Assembly (NCBI RefSeq): GCF_030684315.1
Contig: NC_081391.1
Location: forward strand, 22,900,629 to 22,964,628
Direction: 5' to 3'
From: Stegostoma tigrinum
Lineage: Eukaryota
Length of the DNA stretch: 64,000 bases
The number at the start of each line of letters is the position of its first letter. Positions within the stretch are counted from its first letter, which is position 1. Positions 14,974 to 64,000 of the stretch are shown one piece after another. The position numbers and the translations under genes are program-made. The notes under the pieces are model-generated. The model saw only the letters and a program-made list of their open reading frames with translations, was not told the DNA's origin and made no database searches.

Positions 14974-15162
14974 CCTGGAGAACTGAAACAAAGACAGAAA
15001 TCATTGGAGAAACTCAGCAGGTCTGGCAGGACCAGTGGGAAGAAAACAATGTTACCATTTCTGATGAAGAGTCACCGGACCTGAAACATTAACCTTGCTT
15101 CGCTCTCCACTGATGCTGCCAGATCTGCTGAGTTTCTCCAGCGATTTCTGTTCTTGTTTCAG
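14974..15162. mobile_element. Palindromic PLE-tail insertion, third family
   Basis: Arms ggagaaactcagcaggtctggcag and ctgccagatctgctgagtttctcc are reverse complements; CTGATGAAgagtcaccggacctGAAAcatt at 15061-15090. Confidence 0.7.
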
Positions 15163-20354: not shown

Positions 20355-20553
20355 GAGATAACACAGCGTAGAGCTGAATGAACACAGCAGGCCTGGCAGC
20401 ATCAGAGGACCAGGAAAGCTAATGTTTTGGATTGAAAGCCCTGACCCGAAAGGTCAACTCTCCTGCCCCTCTGATGCTGCCCGGCCTGCTGTGTTTCTCC
20501 AGCTCCACACTGTGTTATCTCTGACTCCAGCATCATCAGTTGCTGCTATCTCT
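20355..20553. mobile_element. Old palindromic PLE mini-insertion
   Basis: Two diverged PLE tails in outward orientation, short end left and long end right; no clear TSD. Confidence 0.7.
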
Positions 20554-21111
20554 GACAGTCAGGGGTGGTTAGGATTGTTGATTCTAGTGGGAATATCCTG
20601 AAAGGATTCAGCAGATCACCGCTCGACTCCAACTATCCTGCTCGCACACTCTTGCTATTGGTCCATCTTCGTGGTACATTGCTCCCCGTAGCTTAGCAAT
20701 GACCTGATTTGATTTGAATCTTGGTGAATCAGCTTTTTTAGCCCCATTGCTGTTATTTTTACAAGTGATCTCCAAAACAGAGAACAACAACACATTTATT
20801 TTAACATCCTTTTGATGTTCCTTCTGTGCTCTGTCCAGAAATTTGGTATTGAATTCCTGGAGGATTCACAATTAAAATGGGGAATGGCTGATGGGGACTT
20901 GCCAAGTAACAGGCTCCTTTGCAATGCTGAAGTTTATTCATGTCGGAGAATAGGCTTCGGGCCCGCAGTGAGTTGGTATCGCTCACTCACTATCACAACC
21001 TCTGAACGCTGAGCCGATTTGACCACATCAGCCTGCCATTAGCTTTCAGTCCTTTCTGTCGGGTTGAAAGACTTACCCCTACCTCCCCACCTATACTCTC
21101 CTCTCTACCTA

Positions 21112-22626
21112 GAGATAATGGGAACTGCAGATGCTGGAGAATTCCAAGATAATAAAATGTGAGGCTGGATGAACACAGCAGGCCAAGCAGCATCTCAGGA
21201 GCACAAAAGCTGACGTTTCGGGCCTAGACCCTTCATCAGAGAGGGGGATGGGGTGAGGGAACTGGAATAAATAGGGAGAGAGGGGGAGGCGGACCGAAGA
21301 TGGAGAGTAAAGAAGATAGGTGGGGAGGTAGGGAGGGGATAGGTCAGTCCAGGGAAGACGGACAGGTCAAGGAGGTGGGATGAGGTTAGTAGGTAGCTGG
21401 GGGTGCGGCTTGGGGTGGGAGGAAGGGATGGGTGAGAGGAAGAACCGGTTAGGGAGGCAGAGACAGGTTGGACTGGTTTTGGGATGCAGTGGGTGGGGGG
21501 GAAGATCTGGGCTGGTTGTGTGGTGCAGTGGGGGGAGGGGACGAACTGGGCTGGTTTAGGGATGCAGTAGGGGAAGGGGAGATTTTGAAACTGGTGAAGT
21601 CCACATTGATACCATATGGCTGCAGGGTTCCCAGGCGGAATATGAGTTGCTGTTCCTGCACCCTTTGGGTAGCATCATTGTGGCACTGCAGGAGGCCCAT
21701 GATGGACATGTCATCTAGGGAATGGGAGGGGGAGTGGAAATGGTTTGCGACTGGGAGGTGCAGTTGTTTGTTATGTACACCTGTTTGTAATGCTACACCT
21801 GTCCCCACACCTCCTCCCTCACCCCCATCCCAGGCCCCAAGATGACATTCCACATTAAGCAGAGGTTCACCTGCACATCTGCCAATGTGGTATACTGCAT
21901 CCACTGTACCCGGTGCGGCTTCCTCTACATTGGGGAAACCAAGCGGAGGCTTGGGGACCGCTTTGCAGAACACCTCCGCTCAGTTCGCAACAAACAACTG
22001 CACCTCCCAGTCGCAAACCATTTCCACTCCCCCTCCCATTCTTTAGATGACATGTCCATCATGGGCCTCCTGCAGTGCCACAATGATGCCACCCAAAGGT
22101 TGCAGGAACAGCAACTCATATTCCGCCTGGGAACCCTGCAGCCATATGGTATCAATGTGGACTTCACCAGTTTCAAAATCTCCCCTTCCCCTACTGCATC
22201 CCTAAACCAGCCCAGTTCGTCCCCTCCCCCCACTGCACCACACAACCAGCCCAGCTCTTCCCCCCCCACCCACTGCATCCCAAAACCAGTCCAACCTGTC
22301 TCTGCCTCCCTAACCGGTTCTTCCTCTCACCCATCCCTTCCTCCCACCCCAAGCCGCACCCCCAGCTACCTACTAACCTCATCCCACCTCCTTGACCTGT
22401 CCGTCTTCCCTGGACTGACCTATCCCCTCCCTACCTCCCCACCTGTACTCTCTCCACCTATCTTCTTTACTCTCCATCTTCGGTCCGCCTCCCCCATCTC
22501 CCTATTTATTCCAGTTCCCTCTCCCCATCCCCCTCTCTGATGAAGGGTCTAGGCCCGAAACGTCAGCTTTTGTGCTCCTGAGATGCTGCTTGGCCTGCTG
22601 TGTTCATCCAGCCTCACATTTTATTA
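21112..22626. mobile_element. Young Neptune-type PLE: inverted minus copy plus a plus copy with the GIY-YIG end, nested in an older PLE tail
   Basis: VVYCIHCTRCGFLYIGETKRRL endonuclease motif; arms about 21150-21773 and 21990-22626 are near-perfect reverse complements; TSD tctcctctctaccta at 21097-21111 and 22627-22641. Confidence 0.93.
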
Positions 22627-23220
22627 TCTCCTCTCTACCTATCTTGTTTTCTCTCCATCTTCGGTCCGCCTCCCCCTCTCTCCCTATTTAGTCCAGTCCC
22701 CTCCCCCCATCCCCCTCTCTGATGAAGGGTCCAGGCCTGAAACGTCAGCTTTTGTGCTCCTGAGATGCTGCTTGGCCTGCTGTGTTCATCCAGCTCCACA
22801 CTTTGTGAGCTTGAAAGACTGTTCCCAGATTGACAGCGCCACCATGTGGTAGTGAGTCAGAGTGCTGGGAATATGGAAATAAGGACTAAGAGAGAGAAAA
22901 TGGGTTAGCTGTGCCAAATGTAACCCGTATCGTGTGATTATGTTGATGTGGAGGTGCCGGTGTTGATCTGGGGTGGACAAGGTCAGAATTCACACCTCAC
23001 CAGGTTACAGTCCATCAGGTTCATTTGGAAACACAAGCTTTCGGAGCCCTGCTCCTTAGTCGGGTGAGGTGGATTCACCTAATGAGGGAGCAGCACTCCG
23101 AAAGCTTAACAAACCTGTTGAACTATAACCTGGCATCATGTGACCTCTGACCTTGTGATAACGGGCCTAGGAGTATGTGGGAATGGGTGACTGTGCGAAA
23201 AGTGACCTGTATCATAACGG

Positions 23221-23430
23221 AGTTGATACAGTGTGGAGCTGGAGGAACACAGCAGGTCAGGCAGTATCAGGAAAGTCGGTGTTTCGGGTTGGGACCCTTC
23301 ATCAGGACATCATCTGTCCCGATACAAAATGCTGACTTTCCTGCTCCTGCTGCTGCCTGACCTGCTGTGTTCCTTCAGCTCCACACTGTATTGACTCTGA
23401 GTTTGAGCAATAGCATTTTTTGCTATCTCG
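23221..23430. mobile_element. Old palindromic PLE mini-insertion
   Basis: Outward-facing tails; degenerate 12-bp TSD gt(a/g)tcataac(g/a)g at 23209-23220 and 23431-23442. Confidence 0.7.
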
Positions 23431-24447: not shown

Positions 24448-24659
24448 CAGAGACAGTAGGAACTGCAGATGCTGGAGAATCTGAGATAACAAGGTGTACA
24501 GCTGGGTGAACACAGCAGGCCAAGCAGCATCAGAGGAGCAGGAAGGTTGATGTTTCGGGTTTTCTGAAGAAGGGTCTAGGCCCAAAATGTCAGCTTTCCT
24601 GCCCCTCTGATGCTGCTTGGCCTGCTGTGTTTATCCAGCTCTACACCTTGTTATCTCTT
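24448..24659. mobile_element. Palindromic PLE mini-insertion inside a third-family PLE tail
   Basis: Long tail left, short tail right; aaccgcagttattt (24434-24447) versus aaccatagttattt (24660-24673). Confidence 0.8.
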
Positions 24660-34199: not shown

Positions 34200-35860
34200 T
34201 TGGCTCCATATTTATATCTATAGTTCCTGCACTACATATGAGCAAACAGTTGCACTCAAAGGCAAGCTGCAGACATATGCTGGGCTCACTGAAGGGTGGT
34301 AGAATTGACCCTTCTGCATCCATACGTGTACAGGCAATCCATGATGTAATTCCCCATTTACCCTATTTCTAGCCAAGGCTGGCTTAGCACAATGTGAATT
34401 AGCCAAATAGTCATGTGAGTTGTTGCAATCAGTTCAAAATGAGTTTCTCCTCATGCACTGAAGGATTCCTGCATGTTTGTCAAGACCTTACAAGTTGAGA
34501 ACAGTGGCATGTCTGCATGTTCTTAACATTGCCAGTTTATTTACCAATGTGCCAGTTGAAGAAGCCATTGTCATTTGCACTATATCACTACTTCATAGTA
34601 ATCCAGATGTACCACAGGTCTCTGAATCTGTGGTCTTCAGACTTATATACTTGGCAACTCGTGCAATTGAGTTCAGCTCCGATTGCATGGCAAATGCCCA
34701 ATATTGGCATTGCCATGGAAACTCCTTTGTGTCCAGCCCTTGCTGACATCTTTATTAGTTACCATGAGAAGTGCATCTTTGCCAGAAAGACCATGTAACT
34801 TTTATCCTTTGTACACTGAAATGTAAATGACCGTTTGCAATATTTGAATCCACAGCTGCAAGGAATTTCTTTGTACAATCTAATAAACTCCATTCTGTGC
34901 TCAAATTTACCATTGCAGCATTCAGTTCAGCTGTCTCTTCAGTGTTTTGGTGGAAAAGTCAGAAAATGGGTTCTCAATGACCATCTACCAAAAGCCAACA
35001 GTCGAGGTCGACATATGTGCTGGGATCAGTCCGATCCCATGTGCTGAAAAATCATTCTTATTGGTGACCTTGTGAATAGTACCATTTGCTCACCAGGTAG
35101 TTTTGACATCGAGAATGTGCACATCAAAACTACCCTGTGTCAGAGATAATGGGAACTGCAGATGCTGGAGAATCAAAGATAATAAAATGTGAGGCTGGAT
35201 GAACACAGCAGGCCAAGCAGCATCTCAGGAGCACAAAAGCTGACGTTTCGGGCCTAGACCCTTCATCTCTGATGAAGGGTCTAGGCCCGAAACGTCAGCT
35301 TTTGTGCTCCTGAGATGCTGCTTGGCCTGCTGTGTTCATCCAGCCTCACATTTTATTACCCTGTGTCATGTTGGAGATACCCTGATCAAATCATCACTTG
35401 TATGTTGCGAAAACTCAAGAAATGGCCTGCAGACTCAGTTCAGACTCTGAGCAGTGTCAAGTCTACCTCATTACCCTGCAGGGGAAAAGTGTCTGAAAAC
35501 TTTGAACAGATGAAGCTAACTGTCTCATGCTCCTATTATGTAGTAAACCATGAGTGGTTTTCTCTGTGATCAAAATGCTGCAGTCAAGCCAAAATGTTTT
35601 GCCTACCACACCAATGAATAAAAGTATGCGTTTGTATCAGTGTGATGCCAGCTATGTAGGCTGTAAGCCCCAATGACTGCTGGGCTCTTTCAAAGAACAC
35701 ATCTGTTGATCATCACAGTGGACATCTGAGTGTGCTCAACCAGGCCTCAAGATTATATCCATCATTTGATGTGGTTATGCTAGGAAATAATTTATTAAAT
35801 AATCCAGATTGTGCCATGAGATACACTGGAAACCAATTTAAGATCATCACTCAGGTTGAC
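34200..35860 (+). mobile_element. Highly degraded Poseidon/Penelope-type PLE (RT and GIY-YIG remnants)
   Basis: NIASLFTNVPVEEAI and IAMETPLCPALADIFISYHE resemble the RT motifs SLFTNVP and GxAMGSPLxPxLANIF; CDASYVG near 35640. Frameshifted throughout. Confidence 0.7.
35143..35356. mobile_element. Young palindromic PLE mini-insertion with a 12-bp TSD
   Basis: 88-bp inverted arms 35180-35267 and 35271-35358 around a 3-nt loop; taccctgtgtca at 35131-35142 and 35357-35368. Confidence 0.95.
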
Positions 35861-35896
35861 AGTGAGAGTGCCAGAAGGAACAGAGACATGGAAGAT

Positions 35897-38011
35897 AATA
35901 AAATGTGAGGCTGGATGAACACAGCAGGCCAAGCAGCATCTCAGTAGCACAAAAGCTGACGTTTCGGGCCTAGACCCTTCATCAGAGAGGGGGATGGGGG
36001 GAGGGAACTGGAATAAATAGGGAGAGAGGGGGAGGCGGACCGAAGATGGAGAGTAAAGAAGATAGGTGGAGAGAGTGTAGGTGGGGAGATAGGGAGGGGA
36101 TAGGTCAGTCCAGGGAAGACAGACAGGTCAAGGAGGTGGGATGAGGTTAGTAGGTAGCTGGGGGTGCGGCTTGGGGTGGGAGGAAGGGATGGGTGAGAGG
36201 AAGAACCGGTTAGGGAGGCAGAGATAGGCTTCTTCCTGTCCCGCAGGCCCGACCAGGCCCCCTCCACCGACACTCTCATCCGCCTAGCTGAACTCGTCCT
36301 CACACTCAACAACTTCTCTTTTGACTCCTCCCACTTCCTACAGACTAAGGGGGTGGCCATGGGCACCCGCATGGGCCCCAGCTATGCCTGCCTCTTTGTA
36401 GGTTACGTGGAACAGTCCCTCTTCCGCACCTACACAGGCCCCAAACCCCACCTCTTCCTCCGGTACATTGATGACTGTATCGGCGCCGCCTCTTGCTCCC
36501 CAGAGGAGCTCGACCAGTTCATCCACTTCACCAACACCTTCCACCCCAACCTTCAGTTCACCTGGGCCATCTCCAGCACATCCCTCACCTTCCTGGACCT
36601 CTCAGTCTCCATCTCAGGCAACCAGCTTGTAACTGATGTCCATTTCAAGCCCACCGACTCCCACAGCTACCTAGAATACACCTCCTCCCACCCACCCTCC
36701 TGCAAAAATTCCATCCCCTATTCCCAATTCCTCCGCCTCCGCCGCATCTGCTCCCACGATAAGACATTCCACTCCCGCACATCCCAGATGTCCAAGTTAT
36801 TTAAGGACCGCAACTTCCCCCCCACAGTGATCGAGAACGCCCTTGACCGCGTCTCCCGCATTTCCCGCGACACATCCCTCACACCCCCCCCCCGCCACAA
36901 CCGCCCCAAGAGGATCCCCCTCGTTCTCACACACCACCCTACCAACCTCCGGATACAACGCATTATCCTCCGACACTTCCGCCATTTACAATCCGACCCC
37001 ACCACCCAAGACATTTTTCCATCCCCTCCCCTGTCTGCTTTCCGGAGAGACCACTCTCTCCGTGACTCCCTTGTTCGCTCCACACTGCCCTCCAACCCCA
37101 CCACACCCGGCACCTTCCCCTGCAACCGCAGGAAGTGCTACACTTGTCCCCACACCTCCTCCCTCACCCCCATCCCAGGCCCCAAGATGACATTCCACAT
37201 TAAGCAGAGGTTCACCTGCATATCTGCCAATGTGGTATACTGCATCCACTGTACCCGGTGCGGCTTCCTCTACATTGGGGAAACCAAGCGGAGGCTTGGG
37301 GACCGCTTTGCAGAACACCTCCGCTCAGTTCGCAACAAACAACTGCACCTCCCAGTTGCAAACCATTTCCACTCCCCCTCCCATTCTCTTGATGACATGT
37401 CCATCATGGGCCTCCTGCACTGCCACAATGATGCCACCCGAAGGTTGCAGGAACAGCAACTCATATTCCGCCTGGGAACCCTGCAGCCATATGGTATCAA
37501 TGTGGACTTCACCAGTTTCAAAATCTCCCCTTCCCCCACTGCATCCCTAAACCAGCCCAGTTCATCCCCTCCCCCCACTGCACCACACAACCAGCCCAGC
37601 TCTTCCCCCCCACCCACTGCATCCCAAAACCAGTCCAACCTGTCTCTGCCTCCCTAACCGGTTCTTCCTCTCACCCATCCCTTCCTCCCACCCCAAGCCG
37701 CACCCCCATCTACCTACTAACCTCATCCCACCTCCTTGACCTGTCCGTCTTCCCTGGACTGACCTATCCCCTCCTTACCTCCTCACCTATACTCTCCTCC
37801 CCACCTATCTTCTTTTCTCTCCATCTTCGGTCCGCCCCCCCCCTCTCTCCCTATTTATTCCAGAACCCTCCCCCCATCCCCCTCTCTGATGAAGGGTCTA
37901 GGCCCGAAACGTCAGCTTTTGTGCTCCTGAGATGCTGCTTGGCCTGCTGTGTTCATCCAGCCTCACATTTTATTATCTTGGATTCTCCAGCATCTGCAGT
38001 TCCCATTATCT
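35897..38011 (+). mobile_element. Young 5'-truncated Neptune-type PLE with an inverted tail on the left and a 16-bp TSD
   Basis: Minus tail 35897 to about 36225, then plus body; cagagacatggaagat at 35881-35896 and 38012-38027. Confidence 0.95.
36230..37657 (+). CDS. PLE reverse transcriptase C-terminal half plus GIY-YIG endonuclease (5'-truncated, uninterrupted frame)
   Basis: GVAMGTRMGPSYACLFVG, RYIDD, FLDL, Cys linker CNRRKCYTC and VVYCIHCTRCGFLYIGET...RFAEH. Frame is open from the junction to the stop. Confidence 0.88.
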   Translation, partial: FFLSRRPDQAPSTDTLIRLAELVLTLNNFSFDSSHFLQTKGVAMGTRMGPSYACLFVGYVEQSLFRTYTGPKPHLFLRYIDDCIGAASCSPEELDQFIHFTNTFHPNLQFTWAISSTSLTFLDLSVSISGNQLVTDVHFKPTDSHSYLEYTSSHPPSCKNSIPYSQFLRLRRICSHDKTFHSRTSQMSKLFKDRNFPPTVIENALDRVSRISRDTSLTPPPRHNRPKRIPLVLTHHPTNLRIQRIILRHFRHLQSDPTTQDIFPSPPLSAFRRDHSLRDSLVRSTLPSNPTTPGTFPCNRRKCYTCPHTSSLTPIPGPKMTFHIKQRFTCISANVVYCIHCTRCGFLYIGETKRRLGDRFAEHLRSVRNKQLHLPVANHFHSPSHSLDDMSIMGLLHCHNDATRRLQEQQLIFRLGTLQPYGINVDFTSFKISPSPTASLNQPSSSPPPTAPHNQPSSSPPPTASQNQSNLSLPP

Positions 38012-39737
38012 CAGAGACATGGAAGATCCTGCTTTGTGTTGATAAAAAGAATTTGGACGTAGATATTTTCTTAATCAACCTGTTCATCTCTGCAGCAAAT
38101 GGGACTAGAACGCAGGCCTCCTGGCTCAGAGGGAGGGACACAATCACTGTATTGTGAGAGTGCTACAAATTTGTACATGTGTTCTACTCCTTTAAAAAAG
38201 GTGTGTTTTGGAGACAGCCATCGGCTGCTGCATCTCCGTGGCAACATCCTGACCAATTAGACCAGGCAGGTTGATTCTGAGAATCAGGATTGACAGGTAA
38301 CCATTCTCGCTGCATCCCTACGATGAAACAGCCAACTGACACTCTTCTCATGCTGTGTGAAGTGGGTGTTCCTCTTTTGTTTAAGTCTGTTTCTTGCATC
38401 CTAGATCTGACGAGTTCAAGATGAAAAGCTTCGTCTTTTTGGTCTCCTTTCAGCAATGTTTAAGTACCATACTACCGAGCAATTATTCACATTTGGGATT
38501 CCAAAAGGCATTCAATAAGGTACCACATGTAAGGCTAGTTAATCAGATAAGAGCCCATTGGGTATTGGAGGCAGTACAATAGCATGCAAAGAGCATTGGC
38601 TAACTAATAGAAACAGAGATTGGGATAAGGGGGGCTATTTTCAGGAAGGCGACCTGTTATGAATGGAGTGCCACAGTGATCAGTGATGGGTTCACAATTA
38701 TTTACAATATATTAATGACTTGGATGAGTGAAGTTAATGTACTGTAGTCAAATTTGCAGATGGTACGGAAATTGATTCCCTTCGAAGTCATATACCATCC
38801 TGGCTCGACACTACATCACCATCCCTTCACAATCACTGGGTCCCTTGCTGTCAGCACTGGCTGTCACTGCCCCATGAAGACGGCATTGATTCAAGGTAGC
38901 TCACAGGTACTTCCTCAAGGGTAATTAGGGATGGTCAATAAATGCTGGCCTTGCTAATTATACTCACATTTCAGGCCTCGGAAGACTTGGCTGGGAGGCT
39001 GCCCGAGAATACAAAGGTGCAGCAGAAAATGGCTCTTGTAGAAAAGCGGTCATGCCCCTACCTCTGGGTCAGGAGGCTGAGTTCAAGTCCTACTTTCTTC
39101 AGGAATGTGTTGTAGCATACCTGCACAGGTTCATTTTAAGGTTGAGGAGAAGCCACCGCAGTCTCAGCAAATTGTAGGGCTTTTCCTCTCATTAGAGGAA
39201 TAACAGGTGGCAAGTTTATCCTGTGGGTCACACCTCAGGCAAGCAGCAAGGTTGAGAATAATGGACCTTCATGGTCACCTCAGCCAGTGTAGGAATTGAA
39301 CCTATACTGTTGATGTCACTCTGCATTGCAAACTGAGATTTTACTTTATATTAAAACATTCATGAAGAGTTAATACATTCATTCCATTTGAACATTCTAT
39401 TCAAAAGTTTCTATAACTAACTATTAACTGAATTATATCCTCTAACATCTAAATCCTTTAATTCTCTCCGGCACACTCCCATTTACCTGGTACAAAGCGA
39501 TCCTTGCAGTTTCTTTATTCCCCATCTTTAAAACAATATAAAAATCCATCTCTAGTAATTTTGAATCAGAAACTCCACCAGTTAATCAGGCACAGTAACA
39601 CCAGATCCCCTTAAATCGATCCTCTGGTTTTCCCCATCAGTTTCATCTCCGCTGTTTGTCATCAGTATCCCCTTCTCCTTCCCCTTGCATTGGATGCTCC
39701 GATAGGTTGCTGTTTCCAAAGGATGGACAAATGACGG

Positions 39738-45780: not shown

Positions 45781-47368
45781 GTGAGCATGGAAGCTCTGAA
45801 CTTGTACGTGTCACTTGCAGAAAACTTCTTGATCTGAGTTGGCATCTGAATCTCAGCCCTCTGGGGCATGACATAGCATTTCTTCTAAAATTTGTGCCTA
45901 GGCTTGGGGATTGTGCCAAATTCCCTCTAGGAAGAAGGTTAATGTACCGACTCCCCTTTAGGAACTGGCCAGCCAGCACTTGGCAGTTCAGGGCTGTGAA
46001 AGCCCACTGTTACTGTCTATAAGCATAGCTGTCACAATATGGCAGGCTAATACTTTGGGGGCAAGCAAGGTCTGAACAGTGCCTGTGTAAGAGCCTCAAT
46101 TAGGTGTCTTGTCTGTTAAGTCTCTGGATTTGCTGGCTGATGGACTGTATTGCTTTCTGTACACAGAAATGGACCCTAGAGGCCCACCCAGTTGATGCTG
46201 ACCATAATCCCAAACTAAACCAGTCTGACCTGCTTGCTCCTAGCCCACTTCCCTCAACCTCTTTACTTAGACACTTTAAGGGTGGGTGGGGAGGAAGATG
46301 ATTTGTAAGGTGGGGCTAGGCTTCCCATCAGAACCAAGACAGTAACACTAGAGCTAGGCTGGTCAGGGTGCTTACTTTTATTTTTCTGGTAACTTGGTAT
46401 CCTGCTTGCATGTTGCCACTGCTCACTGTTCTGGCCCAGTCAGCACAGAAACTGGGCTGTACTTAAACTCAGCACACCATTGTTGCAGTTTCTGCTCCCT
46501 CTTTTAAAAATCTTAGGCTTAGCCCACTAGGCACTGTTGAAGCTTTGAAGGTGTTCCTCTGCAGGATTGTCTTGTATGTTCCCATGCAATTTTACAGACT
46601 GTCCCTGATCCTTTTTGCAAGCTGCACTTCAGTTTTTGACTGTCAATTGACAGTCCAATCTGAAAACAAATGTTAGACAGCACCTGTGAAGAGAACACAA
46701 GCTACCACTAGTATAGATGATTCTTCAATACTTAACTGTTTTGTTGTGTGGCTCCCCTTGCAATGTTATATACAGTCTGTCTCTTACCTAGTAACTTGTT
46801 TACTGTTAAACATTTGTATTCTTGGATGTTATCTGGTGGCTAGTCTCTCAATGACCTCTACTCAACTGCTGGTGTTTCAGTTGAATTTTTGAAGCAGCTA
46901 CTGCTCAGACTTGGAATCTGAGGACTTGAACAATCAAAAGGGATGCCTAGAGAAATTTGGCTCTGAGTATCTAGAGCAAGATGGGAATTGGTATGGATCT
47001 TTGAATTACACAAACTGAAGATGACAGGTGTGTCTATGATCAGTTATTAGCATTTGAAACTCTGGTAATGAAGACAACTCTAGAAAAATCTTCAGGAAAC
47101 TGTCTGGCAATAATAAACTAAAGGTGTTCCTCAAACTTGAGTTGCACTAACTAGCCAGTCCCTTTTTATGGGAAGAATGTTGAAACTGTGAAACTAAAGA
47201 AATAATACAAATTACTATAACTTGAAGCTGTTAACCTTCTGAATTCACTATGCTGCTGTGTAACAGAGCTGACTTCAAACAGCTGTTTCCCCCTCCATTG
47301 TTACCAGACCTGTTGAGCTTTTCCAGCATTTCTAAATATTAGGAACAAAACATTCCCTGATGGGGCAT

Positions 47369-47582
47369 GAGATAATGGGAACTGCAGATCCTAGAGAGTC
47401 CAATATAAGTGTGGAGCTGGATGAACAGCAGGCCAAGCAGCATCTTAGGAGCACAAAAGCTGACATTTCAGGCCTCAGCCCTTCACTAGACAAGACTGAA
47501 GGGTCTAGACCTGAAATGGCAACTTTTGTGCTCCTAGTTGCTGCTTGGCCTGCTGTTCATCCAGCTCCACACACTTTATCTT
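47369..47582. mobile_element. Palindromic PLE mini-insertion in galectin intron 3
   Basis: Long tail left, short tail right; perfect TSD ctgatggggcat at 47357-47368 and 47583-47594. Confidence 0.88.
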
Positions 47583-57026: not shown

Positions 57027-58234
57027 ATTTTAACCTCACTGCGAAGCCTCTTCCAGGGATGCCTAACCTGAAGAAGTTACCCTCCTCCCTCCGGACCAAC
57101 CTCAGGGAATCTCTCTCCCATTGCAACTCTCTTGTACTCTCCATCTTCGGTCCGCCTCCCCCTCTCTCCCTATTTATTCCAGTTCCCTCCCCCCATCCCC
57201 CTCTCTGATGAAGGGTCTAGGCCCGAAACGTCAGCTTTTGTGCTCCTGAGATGCTGCTTGGCCTGCTGTGTTCATCCAGCCTCACATTTTATTATCTTGG
57301 AATCTCCAGCATCTGCAGTTCCCATTATCTCTGATACTATTTTAACCTCACTGCGAAGCCTCTTCCAGGGATGCCTAACCTGAAGAAGTTACCCTCCTCC
57401 CTCCGGACCAACCTCAGGGAATCTCTCTCCCATTGCAACTCTCTTGTACTCTCCATCTTCGGTCCGCCTCCCCCTCTCTCCCTATTTATTCCAGTTCCCT
57501 CCCCCCATCCCCCTCTCTGATGAAGGGTCTAGGCCCGAAACGTCAGCTTTTGTGCTCCTGAGATGCTGCTTGGCCTGCTGTGTTCATCCAGCCTCACATT
57601 TTATTATCTTGGAATCTCCAGCATCTGCAGTTCCCATTATCTCTGATACTATTTTAACCTCACTGCGAAGCCTCTTCCAGGGATGCCTAACCTGAAGAAG
57701 TTACCCTCCTCCCTCCGGACCAACCTCAGGGAATCTCTCTCCCATTGCAACTCTCTTGTACTCTCCATCTTCGGTCCGCCTCCCCCTCTCTCCCTATTTA
57801 TTCCAGTTCCCTCCCCCCATCCCCCTCTCTGATGAAGGGTCTAGGCCCGAAACGTCAGCTTTTGTGCTCCTGAGATGCTGCTTGGCCTGCTGTGTTCATC
57901 CAGCCTCACATTTTATTATCTTGGAATCTCCAGCATCTGCAGTTCCCATTATCTCTGATACTATTTTAACCTCACTGCGAAGCCTCTTCCAGGGATGCCT
58001 AACCTGAAGAAGTTACCCTCCTCCCTCCGGACCAACCTCAGGGAATCTCTCTCCCATTGCAACTCTCTTGTACTCTCCATCTTCGGTCCGCCTCCCCCTC
58101 TCTCCCTATTTATTCCAGTTCCCTCCCCCCATCCCCCTCTCTGATGAAGGGTCTAGGCCCGAAACGTCAGCTTTTGTGCTCCTGAGATGCTGCTTGGCCT
58201 GCTGTGTTCATCCAGCCTCACATTTTATTATCTT
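57027..58234 (+). repeat. 312-bp tandem array (about 3.9 copies) of an internally deleted PLE derivative, one hammerhead per unit
   Basis: Identical 83-aa ORFs start at 57132, 57444 and 57756, and the same frame opens again at 58068; units look identical by eye. Confidence 0.96.
57203..57234 (+). ncRNA. Minimal type I hammerhead ribozyme motif (cores also start at 57517, 57829 and 58141, and occur in other young PLE tails)
   Basis: CUGAUGA, extra A, stem II GGGU/GCCC with CUAG loop, GAAA, C, GUC; predicted cleavage after 57232. Stem III is reduced to the palindrome ACGU and stem I is only about 2 bp. Confidence 0.7.
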
Positions 58235-60019
58235 AGATCACAGCGTGGCGCTTTTGGATCGAGCCTTCTCTGTGGTTGACTTGAGGGCTATTTATTTTCA
58301 ACGTCCTGACAGCTCCTCTGAAACTCTTCTCTTTGTGGAGTAACCAGATGGACCCGGTTCTGCTGAAGTCATCACAAGCCTCTAAAAACGATATACTTAG
58401 TCCGACCAGGGAAGGATAATTTTTTTGAAGGGTTTGCAAAGTCAGGAATCAGACGATGACAGGTTATAGTCCAAGAGGTTTATTTGAAAACACAAGCTTT
58501 CGGAGCCTAGCCCCTTTGTCAGGAGCAGGGTTTCAGAGAGAGACAGAGACTCTTGTTTCTGCTCTCTGCATATGACCCTTGAGGCAAAATGTCTGTTAGT
58601 GGTATAAATCAGTTCGTCTGAGGAATAATACCCTTCCCTTTTACTTTTGTCTTGGGCTGGAGTATACAACAGCAAAGCTCTTGGATTCAAGCTATCTACG
58701 GTGCAGAAGCAAGCCATTTGGCCCATCATGCTCATGCCAGCTCTTAGAAAGAACTAACACACTCGCTTGGACTCCTTCCCACTCGTCTCTGCACATTTTC
58801 TCCCTTTAAAGATATATCCAGTTCCCTTTACATTACATCTCCTTCTGAGTCTCTTACTCTGCTCGCTGTTATTTGTATCTTGCAGTTTATGACTGTATGC
58901 TAATTTCTGGGTGGACTATCAAGCCTCCTTCCTCAGTCCAAAGTTTGAAGCCTCTGCTGCTTGATTTTTGGGGTACTTTTTTCTAAATTCAGTCACAGAA
59001 TCTGGACATCACTGGCCAGGCAGCATTTATTGCCCATCCCTAATTGCCCAGGGGGCAGTTAAGAGTCAACCACATTGCCGTGGGTCTGGAGTCACATGTA
59101 GGCCAGACTAGGTAAGGAGGGCAGTTTCCTTCCCTAAAGGACATTAGTGACCCAGATGGGTTTTTCCAACAATTGACACCAGTTTCATGGTCATCATTAG
59201 TCTCCTAATTTTTAATGGAATCCGCCATCTGCCAGGGCAGAATTTGAACCCAGGGTACGGGTCATTACTGGGAGTTTCTGGATTAATAGTCTAGTGATAA
59301 TACTACGAGGCCGTCACGTTCTTGGGGACAAAATTCGCAAGGAGGCTGAGGATACAGGGTATGTCCTGAGGCAGAATGTGATCCGTGCACCAATCATGGA
59401 GTTGGAAGAGTGACATTGCAGAAATATTGATCCAAGGTTTTGAATTGGGCATAAATAACATGGGAGCCATGAGCTGTTTGCATCCCCAAGTGATGGACTT
59501 GGCAGAAATACAAAGCACACTTTATTAGGCAGTTGACAGTTACACAAGTGACATATCAGACAATACAACTGTATGAGGTAAGCCCAAAGTATGGGAAAGA
59601 GAAACTTCAGCTGTAAGTGGGGGGGGGAGGTGGGATTTAAAGGGACCTGAAACGTCAGCTTTCCTGCTCCTCTGATGCTGCTTGGCCTGCTGTGTTCATC
59701 CAGGTCTGCACCTTGTTATCTCAGATTCCAGCATCGGCAGTTCCTACTATCTCCGAAAGGCAGAGTAGTCATTTTTGGTTTGTTTGTTATTTATTGGTTT
59801 ACCCTTGGCCAGTTCCAGTTTTGTTCTGTTTCTCGTGATGATTTAAGTTCTTTTTAAGCAACCTTGACTAGTCTCAGAGCTGTGCACAGGGCCACTATCT
59901 ACGTTGCTCTAAGGACAAGGAGCCACCAGAAAAGATGCAGAGGGGATTTCAAAGGATCGTGTCAGAAACTGGAGATTCTAATGACCCAACTGGGCCCATT
60001 TCTCTAGAGCCGAGTGGGG

Positions 60020-63141: not shown

Positions 63142-63362
63142 AGAGAGATAATAGAAACTGCAGGTGCTGGAGAATCCGAGATAACAAGGTATGGAGCTGG
63201 ATGAACACAGCAGGCCAAGCAGCTTCTTAGGAGCAGGAAAGCTGACGCTTCAGGCCTAGACCCTTCAATTTCTGATGAAGGCTCTAGGCCCAAAATGTCA
63301 GCCTTCCTGTTCCTAAGATGCTGCTTGGCCTGCTGTGTTCATCCAACTCCGCACTTTGTTAT
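63142..63362. mobile_element. Palindromic PLE mini-insertion inside an old SINE
   Basis: Long tail left, short tail right; catgaaatgagtgag (63127-63141) versus cataaaatgaatgag (63363-63377). Confidence 0.82.
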
Positions 63363-64000
63363 CATAAAATGAATGAGGTGGGTTTTAAGTGCCACTCGAT
63401 GGGAAGCATGCGGTCGCAATTTAATCAGCATTTTATTCCAGATTTTATCAAGTTCAAATCCCACCATCCACTGGAAGCCATGTCCCCAGAGAGTTATTCA
63501 GAAGTACCATGACTTTGTCCACCCCAGTCCAACTCCAGCACCTCCATATTAAGCCCACAGCATTCATCTGAGGTTCGGGATTACTATAATAAAAGCAAAA
63601 TTCTGCAGGCGCTGGAAATCTGAAACAAAAATAGAGAAACTCTGCAGGTCTGGCAGCCTCTGTGGAGAGAAGAGGAGTCATACTGAGGTTGAAATGTTAT
63701 CTGTTTTTCTCTCTTTCGCTAAGTTTCTCCAGTGTTCTCTGTGCTTGCTCTGTCCAGTGGCATGGCCACTGGTTGCTACCTCCCCACAATAATTCCACTT
63801 CCTTCTCTGGATGCATGTTCACAGCTTTCTGAAGCAAAGAACAGTCCCGGCCTTGACAATGTTTCTGTGCCCAGTTGACCTAGGTGTGTCGTGCCCCTCT
63901 CGAGATTTACTCCCTCTGTCTCATGTGCCTGACCCTTCTCAGGCCACATGCCTGATGTGAACCCTCTCAGACTGGTAATTGTGAAAAGTAGCTTGTGAAG

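Follow-up and report, generated by a model that had tools for sequence, protein, structure and literature searches.

We identified the hairpin insertion at 35131-35368 of the window, the 64,000-nucleotide stretch of Stegostoma tigrinum DNA analysed here, as a minimal insertion of a Penelope-like element (PLE) with a reverse transcriptase (RT) and a GIY-YIG endonuclease (EN), and not as a MITE. The copy exists as described and is very young; it belongs, as an ordinary member, to an abundant class and represents the smallest form of the known PLE layout. We consider it likely that such minis are dead-end products, made when reverse transcription was primed from both ends of a staggered cut, close to the 5' end of the element RNA, and both copies ran off that end.

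Structure of the hairpin insertion

The insert between the target repeats spans 35143-35356 (214 bp), and its hairpin arms (35180-35267 and 35271-35358, 88 nt each) are 100% complementary around a 3-nt spacer. Folded as DNA, the hairpin reaches -123.6 kcal/mol (z -26), and none of 200 shuffles was as good. The direct repeat TACCCTGTGTCA flanks the insert and lengthens to 14 bp with one mismatch, which is in line with the mode of 14-16 bp in the family. When the PLE leader is numbered from the C of CTGATGA as +1, the long arm covers +3 to +127 and the short arm -3 to +90, so that their ends lie 37 nt apart. Compared with the terminus of the PLE at 35892-38013, the short arm shows no difference and the long arm a single one; the final 3 bases of the left duplication equal the element's continuation past its long end, as read from the tandem copy at 57330. 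An earlier note, made from the sequence alone, had described just such a 214-bp insert of two outward-pointing PLE tails, with an 88-bp perfect hairpin, a 12-bp target-site duplication and one long and one short terminus 35-40 nt apart, and each of these points stood. The relevant features are listed below, with the tail understood as in earlier work on such elements (PMC8557442, PMC11167929).

35131..35142, + strand: left target-site duplication, 12 bp exact (35129-35142 makes 14 bp with one mismatch)
35143..35267, - strand: long arm, PLE leader +3 to +127, without the first two hammerhead-core bases; putative first-strand cDNA primed from the top-strand nick
35143..35179, - strand: 37-nt tail, on the long arm only, the stretch from the short to the long start site
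35261..35277, no strand: head-to-head junction CTTCATC-TCT-GATGAAG, with a 2-nt overlap (35266-35267) common to both arms
35266..35358, + strand: short arm, PLE leader -3 to +90, its last 2 bases common to the right duplication; putative cDNA primed from the bottom-strand nick
35269..35296, + strand: minimal type I hammerhead-like motif (CTGATGA, helix II, GAAAC, GTC), by inspection against PMC4209133
35357..35368, + strand: right target-site duplication, direct repeat
35892..38013, + strand: long-class insertion of the parent family with its own duplication; inverted short-ended pLTR at the left, frame, pLTR, long end
36197-37657, + strand: 5'-truncated RT + CX4CXXC + GIY-YIG frame inside 35892-38013
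37852-37859, + strand: TATA-like TATTTATT, predicted core promoter
37882, + strand: C at -4 where arms end, 30 nt downstream of the TATA-like box, predicted start site

The layout is that of an EN+ Penelope-like insertion, with an inverted 5'-truncated copy, a one-sided tail and a duplication around the unit. Where a MITE has terminal inverted repeats that reach both ends, one arm is longer here by the whole tail, and the ends vary by ~10 nt; where a MITE has a short fixed duplication, lengths of 10-19 bp with a mode of 14-16 were found. The earlier note had likewise held that the insert is not a MITE, which agrees with unequal arms drawn from a retroelement leader and with duplications of variable length. 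Nor does the insert form the head-to-tail array of a retrozyme, as it is a single head-to-head unit.

On inspection, the hammerhead-like motif of the pLTR has the core letters, and its helix I looks weak; an Rfam scan of the window gave no matches at the gathering score, to a hammerhead or otherwise. The predicted cut falls after GTC at 35296 (+28/29). The hairpin axis (~0) is found some 28 nt further upstream, at the motif's front edge, which rules out the ribozyme cut as the axis of the window copy. The earlier note had placed the axis at the hammerhead core: it does sit at the edge of the motif, but the RNA 5' end proposed below would explain its position better than the hammerhead itself.

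The parent element

The truncated frame in the window had no match in Pfam at 1e-3 or in a PDB sequence search, and weak Pfam matches appear at a looser cut-off. A natural copy elsewhere in the genome (L249) carries an open frame of 1,088 codons that begins at +130, directly after the tail, and is 97% identical to the window frame. This frame matches RVT_1 (E 3.4e-5, at 587-714) and GIY-YIG (E 0.0015, at 948-988), both under the Pfam curated cut-offs; among its 693 homologues, most have RT families and some GIY-YIG, and the closest one with a source name is a bamboo-shark protein (77%). A single ORF of this kind, with an RT plus, at the C terminus, a GIY-YIG endonuclease, is that of an EN+ PLE. 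Between RT and EN, upstream of the GIY-YIG motif, stands C-NRRK-C-YT-C (CX4CXXC). A CX2-5CxxC in this place marks Neptune/Nematis elements (PMC8557442), and judged by its linker motif the parent is of the Neptune/Nematis type.

Hammerhead and tail occur both upstream and downstream of the frame in L248, L249, L250, L253 and L255. Because the frame opens straight after it, the tail is the element's RNA leader, which the tandem layout repeats downstream. The leader of the Anolis element likewise runs on into the ORF (PMC11167929), and a genome pattern search found 1,714 read-through copies.

The window holds further relatives. An array at 57137-58238 consists of head-to-tail 312-bp units, each made up of the pLTR end with the TATA-like box, the hammerhead, the tail and ~115 nt from the start of the ORF region; we regard it as retrozyme-like and as a possible source of short capped templates, and many of the 1,714 read-through copies sit in such head-to-tail arrays with other unit lengths. 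At 21111-22813, a pLTR seems to have received a long-class fold-back of the same family, with an 11-bp duplication, which gave a partial tandem. Decayed palindromes of ~180 bp lie at 14983-15162 and 22977-23156, the first with a hammerhead-like centre from another PLE-like family.

Abundance, ends and target junctions

Exact-motif pattern searches of the 3.2-Gb genome counted 8,962 hairpin centres (control 0), at least 6,857 long+short minis of 201-231 bp and 161 long+long ones. The short motif stands on both arms of 7,110 copies, which leaves little room for short+short minis. A sample of 1.21 Mb was drawn from random stretches, from DNA flanking 35 selected loci, whose central element was taken out, and from the window, whose tandem array was left aside. 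It yielded 122 arms of at least 88% identity away from locus edges. All 30 adjacent inverted pairs among them combined a long with a short end (30/30), and 62 arms were unpaired. Scaling up the 20 young minis in this sample, which includes the flanks of selected loci, gives a rough 50,000 young copies genome-wide. Older, decayed fold-back minis of related subfamilies occur in the window with the same layout (63145-63363, 47368-47579, 24450-24656, 20373-20552 and 23226-23392), so the process has been running for a long time.

The earlier note had suggested tabulating end positions, duplication lengths and central junctions. End positions proved bimodal, with the template match ending at +84..+97 or +125..+134 and three ends further out; they are preferred rather than fixed and vary over ~10 nt. 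A target duplication was present in 72 of 83 non-query minis and measured 14-16 bp in 55 of the 72, neither short nor fixed. Both target junctions show an excess of 1-3 nt microhomology between the target end and the continuation of the RNA. Among junctions without untemplated bases (negative-value junctions, 19 long and 17 short, being set aside), zero microhomology was found at 11/53 long junctions (~52% expected, p 3e-6) and 13/55 short ones (~52% expected, p 2e-5). Both therefore look like priming events, and this microhomology of primer and template supports, as read from DNA scars, the earlier proposal that both staggered nicks primed at two internal sites. Two start sites and a one-sided tail are already published (PMC11167929, PMC8557442).

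The central junctions vary, as independent formation predicts. The first 50 centres listed on contig C1 are diverse, and one of the 50 equals the centre of the window copy, with long and short arms oriented the other way round; 59 centre types occur as singletons, and some mini junctions hold untemplated or captured bases. The best 30 genome matches to the window copy include 27 with a near-identical 214-bp layout and 28 with the same exact centre. In a subfamily test of identical centres, based on the tail marker and +55, these 28 query-selected copies carried three tail subfamily alleles, and other repeated centres also span subfamilies. Varying centres, together with identical centres across three subfamilies, indicate that copies form anew each time; the shared masters with a shared interior of a MITE- or SINE-like family were not found.

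A second, smaller class of minis appears to be centred on the predicted ribozyme cut (+29 arm-start pattern, 2,627 matches). Among its first 100 listed rows, about 63 show a perfectly palindromic centre that was counted once per strand; the others suggest roughly three times the level of the control site. This class may reflect ribozyme-cut templates, or just a 4-nt palindrome that favours joins.

A common limit of the arms and a predicted promoter

The extent of the arms is limited 4-6 nt upstream of the hammerhead core. In the 1.21-Mb sample, 77 arm 5' ends fell within -7..+60 and 1 within -75..-8 (p 5e-22), and 40 further ends were scattered over 2 kb upstream. Single, unpaired tails end at the same wall. 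Both arms were mini in 20 pairs and long in 9, and 1 pair was mixed (Fisher p 7e-7). Many arms, including both of the window copy, end before -4 and as far in as +60, which calls for trimming or early stalls in addition.

The wall stands at a fixed distance from a candidate promoter. TATTTA begins at -34 in 40 of the 47 young pLTRs where it was found (50 examined), 30 nt above -4, and this spacing is textbook for TATA boxes (PMC4422821). Position -4 is a C within a pyrimidine run; C starts in such runs occur and are a common type in fish (PMC6954239). The box TATTTATT agrees with the TATAWAAR consensus at 5/8 places only, and on the opposite strand it reads AATAAA, which could be a poly(A) signal for antisense transcripts; given both, the box may be conserved for another reason. 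We infer, from spacing and base context, that the pLTR promoter probably yields a capped RNA starting at -4. In D. virilis, the front of helix I holds a splice acceptor (PMC4209133); an acceptor of this kind was rejected here, as no AG precedes -4 and the bases upstream at the junctions do not form a constant exon.

Arms that reach the wall often carry one more base there, a G. With T fixed at -6, the genome matches had G at -5 in 1,243 and A/T in 482 (72% G), against 33% expected from local composition. Counted by eye, G stood at the wall in 44 of 71 non-read-through rows and in 26 of 45 judged unambiguous; in some fold-back rows the G may come from the opposite arm, which makes them ambiguous. 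One truncation site near +18 served as control and, likewise by eye, had G in ~13/79 rows. The -4 pattern itself had 5,376 matches (with 29 read-through variants among the first 100 listed), the control 384. Source-type copies have C at this position (91/93 read-through copies, 11/11 continuing into the ORF), which rules out a source variant as the main template of the G, and G junctions were found in all three subfamilies. Raw-data contigs of run X2 contain two joints into -4 with a lone G between them.

An untemplated G at the full 5' extent of L1 copies has been attributed to copying of the cap (PMC9341517), and the non-source G at the wall is likewise likely to be what cap copying leaves behind. 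An RT could add C at any run-off end, capped or not, and would leave the same sign, yet the RNA end would still be placed at -4. G at -5 also occurs in some read-through pLTR copies (9/29 variant rows; L226, L227, L233, L238 and L239), where it could be a cap-derived G fixed by a jump onto a pLTR or, equally, a minor variant.

One RNA or two

Divergence is 2.5% between the two arms of one element and 4.0% from element to element, and no permutation out of 2,000 gave so low a value. At the markers +55, +77 and +83 they agree far above chance and disagree in 8/78, 7/81 and 7/81 minis, and 96 rare variants occur on one arm only versus 11 on both. Marker disagreement and one-arm variants argue against a strict single template, and the disagreement also against pure self-copying (PMC3846280). 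The agreement could stem from subfamilies active at different times or from arm-to-arm conversion. A rule that the short arm always leads was not seen in minis (39 vs 31, 13 ties); in long-class pairs the short arm leads in 7/9. Between a single RNA that serves both polymerases, with two RNAs for a minority of copies, and two RNAs in an asymmetric dimer, we lean modestly towards the single RNA. One RNA used once per start site would be the simplest account both of the long+short rule and of the rule that pairs are both mini or both long.

Proposed mechanism and alternatives

In the mechanism that we favour, a cut with a stagger of 14-16 nt would let both nicks prime reverse transcription on the element RNA. 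A capped RNA from -4 would contain the hammerhead and both internal start sites in its first 130 nt, and a tandem transcript would have a second tail downstream. Priming at the downstream tail would lead to ordinary long insertions with an inverted pLTR, and priming at the 5'-proximal tail to run-off cDNAs of ~95 and ~130 nt, often ending in a cap-copied C. The two cDNA ends would then be joined by template switch or microhomology end joining with few bases lost or gained, in the window copy via the 2-nt overlap at +3/-3. In the one-RNA version, the trailing RT from the long site would displace the short-site cDNA. We suggest more tentatively, and as something short of probable, that minis are fossil strong-stop products: one capped RNA copied twice at once, from both nicks and two start sites, where the trailing polymerase would displace the cDNA ahead of it and, at the cap, jump to the end of that cDNA. 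At L132:835-1398, a duplication surrounds a unit whose two arms extend to -4 and -5. Between them lie 337 bp copied from the neighbouring upstream flank (439-767, 99%), as if by a jump from the end of the RNA to DNA close by.

Twin priming could also be combined with a different cause of the wall, namely a polymerase stall inside a longer RNA, at the edge of the hammerhead (folded or dimeric) or at a G-quadruplex-prone run of the cDNA, with a non-templated C added. The wall does coincide with the 5' edge of the hammerhead motif, and the cDNA just past it is rich in G runs. However, the roughly one third of arms that pass -4 end anywhere over 2 kb and almost never in -75..-8, which two template classes fit better than a leaky pause, and 29 of 30 pairs are both-mini or both-long. 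With the exact spacing from the wall to the TATA-like box, the lack of a G excess at the control site and a leader RNA without an unusually stable fold (z +0.97) also against it, a stall seems unlikely. Somewhat less likely still is self-priming, in which one cDNA, or an antisense template (PMC3846280), folds back at its end and serves as its own template, the tail then arising from unequal resolution of the ends by the endonuclease. Palindromes are known at inverted junctions (PMC3846280), the arms of one element are more alike than chance, and those of the window copy are identical; but each target junction has microhomology to the RNA's own continuation at its separate site, the two arms differ in subfamily allele in 9-10% of minis, either arm may extend further (39 vs 31), some junctions include untemplated or captured bases, and two start sites have been demonstrated in vitro (PMC11167929).

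The uniformity of the best genome matches, 27 of 30 in layout and 28 in centre, would suit a hairpin that is a non-autonomous retroelement of its own, transcribed through its centre and reinserted by the PLE protein. Yet that set was selected by the query, the single matching centre among the first 50 on C1 has the opposite orientation, identical centres cross three tail subfamilies here and at other repeated centres, the 59 singleton types stand beside them, and single tails end at the same wall; the reading is in our view quite improbable as a general account. A few copies may have spread secondarily to a minor extent. A DNA-transposon MITE or an assembly chimera has in its favour a short, non-coding sequence with a long inverted repeat. 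It is refuted for the family by unequal arms identical to a retroelement leader, ends that vary by ~10 nt, variable duplications of 14-16 bp and copies in their thousands, each in a unique site flanked by its own duplication and with decay in the old ones, so that we give it practically no weight. At the left junction of the window copy itself, four raw-data runs gave no coverage of the unique flank, and thus showed neither support nor an empty allele.

Relation to known systems

The canonical EN+ PLE insertion unit has an adjacent inverted 5'-truncated pLTR and a one-sided tail of 30-40 bp (PMC8557442), as exemplified by Pen2/Pen2a of Adineta vaga (PMC3846280) and Penelope of Drosophila virilis (PMC2377424). 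Minis share with it the head-to-head inverted copy, the tail at one end, the duplication around the unit, the palindromic junction and the hammerhead-like pLTR motif, and the canonical long form is itself present in the window (35892-38013). Unlike canonical units, minis have no ORF or pLTR body, their arms stay within the first 130 nt of the leader, they have a sharp common limit with a non-source G, and they occur in thousands of exact-motif copies. The Poseidon element PAc of Anolis carolinensis has been studied in vitro: its protein cuts and extends both strands and starts at two internal positions between which the tail lies, hammerhead cleavage is dispensable, and the start sites were reported as not homologous to the cut DNA (PMC11167929). 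The main text of that study does not address the formation of inverted arms or cDNA ends in vivo (PMC11167929). Our family resembles PAc in the two start sites bounding the tail and in a leader that continues into the ORF, and differs from this member of the Poseidon clade in the CX2-5CxxC linker of its parent and in the 1-3 nt microhomology at its junctions.

In L1 twin priming, both nicks prime on the element RNA and the products, two cDNAs that copy different parts of the RNA, are joined by microhomology. Minis would be like L1 in twin-nick priming and the microhomology join, and are like it in a 14-16 bp duplication and the untemplated G at full 5' extent; unlike L1, both cDNAs copy the same 88 nt from two fixed internal starts, and there is no poly(A) tail. 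Retroviral minus-strand strong-stop DNA is a short, tRNA-primed cDNA that starts near the RNA 5' end and runs off at the cap. Minis would share the short cDNA, the start near the RNA 5' end and the run-off at the cap, and would differ in being primed by target DNA, made twice and integrated as an end product, with no sign of the obligatory transfer to the 3' end.

Animal non-LTR retrozymes are, like minis, short and non-coding derivatives of PLEs; they bear a hammerhead and are reported also from a cartilaginous fish (bioRxiv 10.64898/2026.07.22.740005); minimal hammerheads are scattered through vertebrate genomes (PMC4209133). Retrozymes are head-to-tail arrays, the kind that the array at 57137-58238 fits, whereas a mini is a single head-to-head unit. 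In the main text of the retrozyme preprint, 'inverted' appears only in the reference list, and 'hairpin' and 'palindrom' do not appear (bioRxiv 10.64898/2026.07.22.740005). We found no prior description of such minis or of a limit at the cap or start site in the literature searched, a scope outside which lie subscription papers and Repbase/Dfam entries.

Significance

Inverted truncated copies, one-sided tails and two start sites are published; what the minis add is mechanistic, as their sequences point to priming from both nicks and to run-off at a capped start. The origin of inverted pLTRs and one-sided tails was stated to be unresolved (PMC8557442), and later steps were described as 'yet to be validated' (PMC11167929). 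This family supplies thousands of natural reaction products with base-level junctions. They support priming in vivo from both nicks, with a stagger of 14-16 nt, over self-priming on an antisense template, and they point to a candidate promoter and start site. In shark repeat libraries, such hairpins would be mis-filed as MITEs, and transcription of the young copies could, on the rough count given above, yield a large amount of double-stranded RNA. If the strong-stop reading is true, one rule would cover the one-sided tail, the inverted pLTR and, through cap jumps onto other templates, tandems that regenerate the promoter, and tens of thousands of junctions would show where, in vivo, the RNA of a PLE starts, its cap is copied and its ribozyme cuts.
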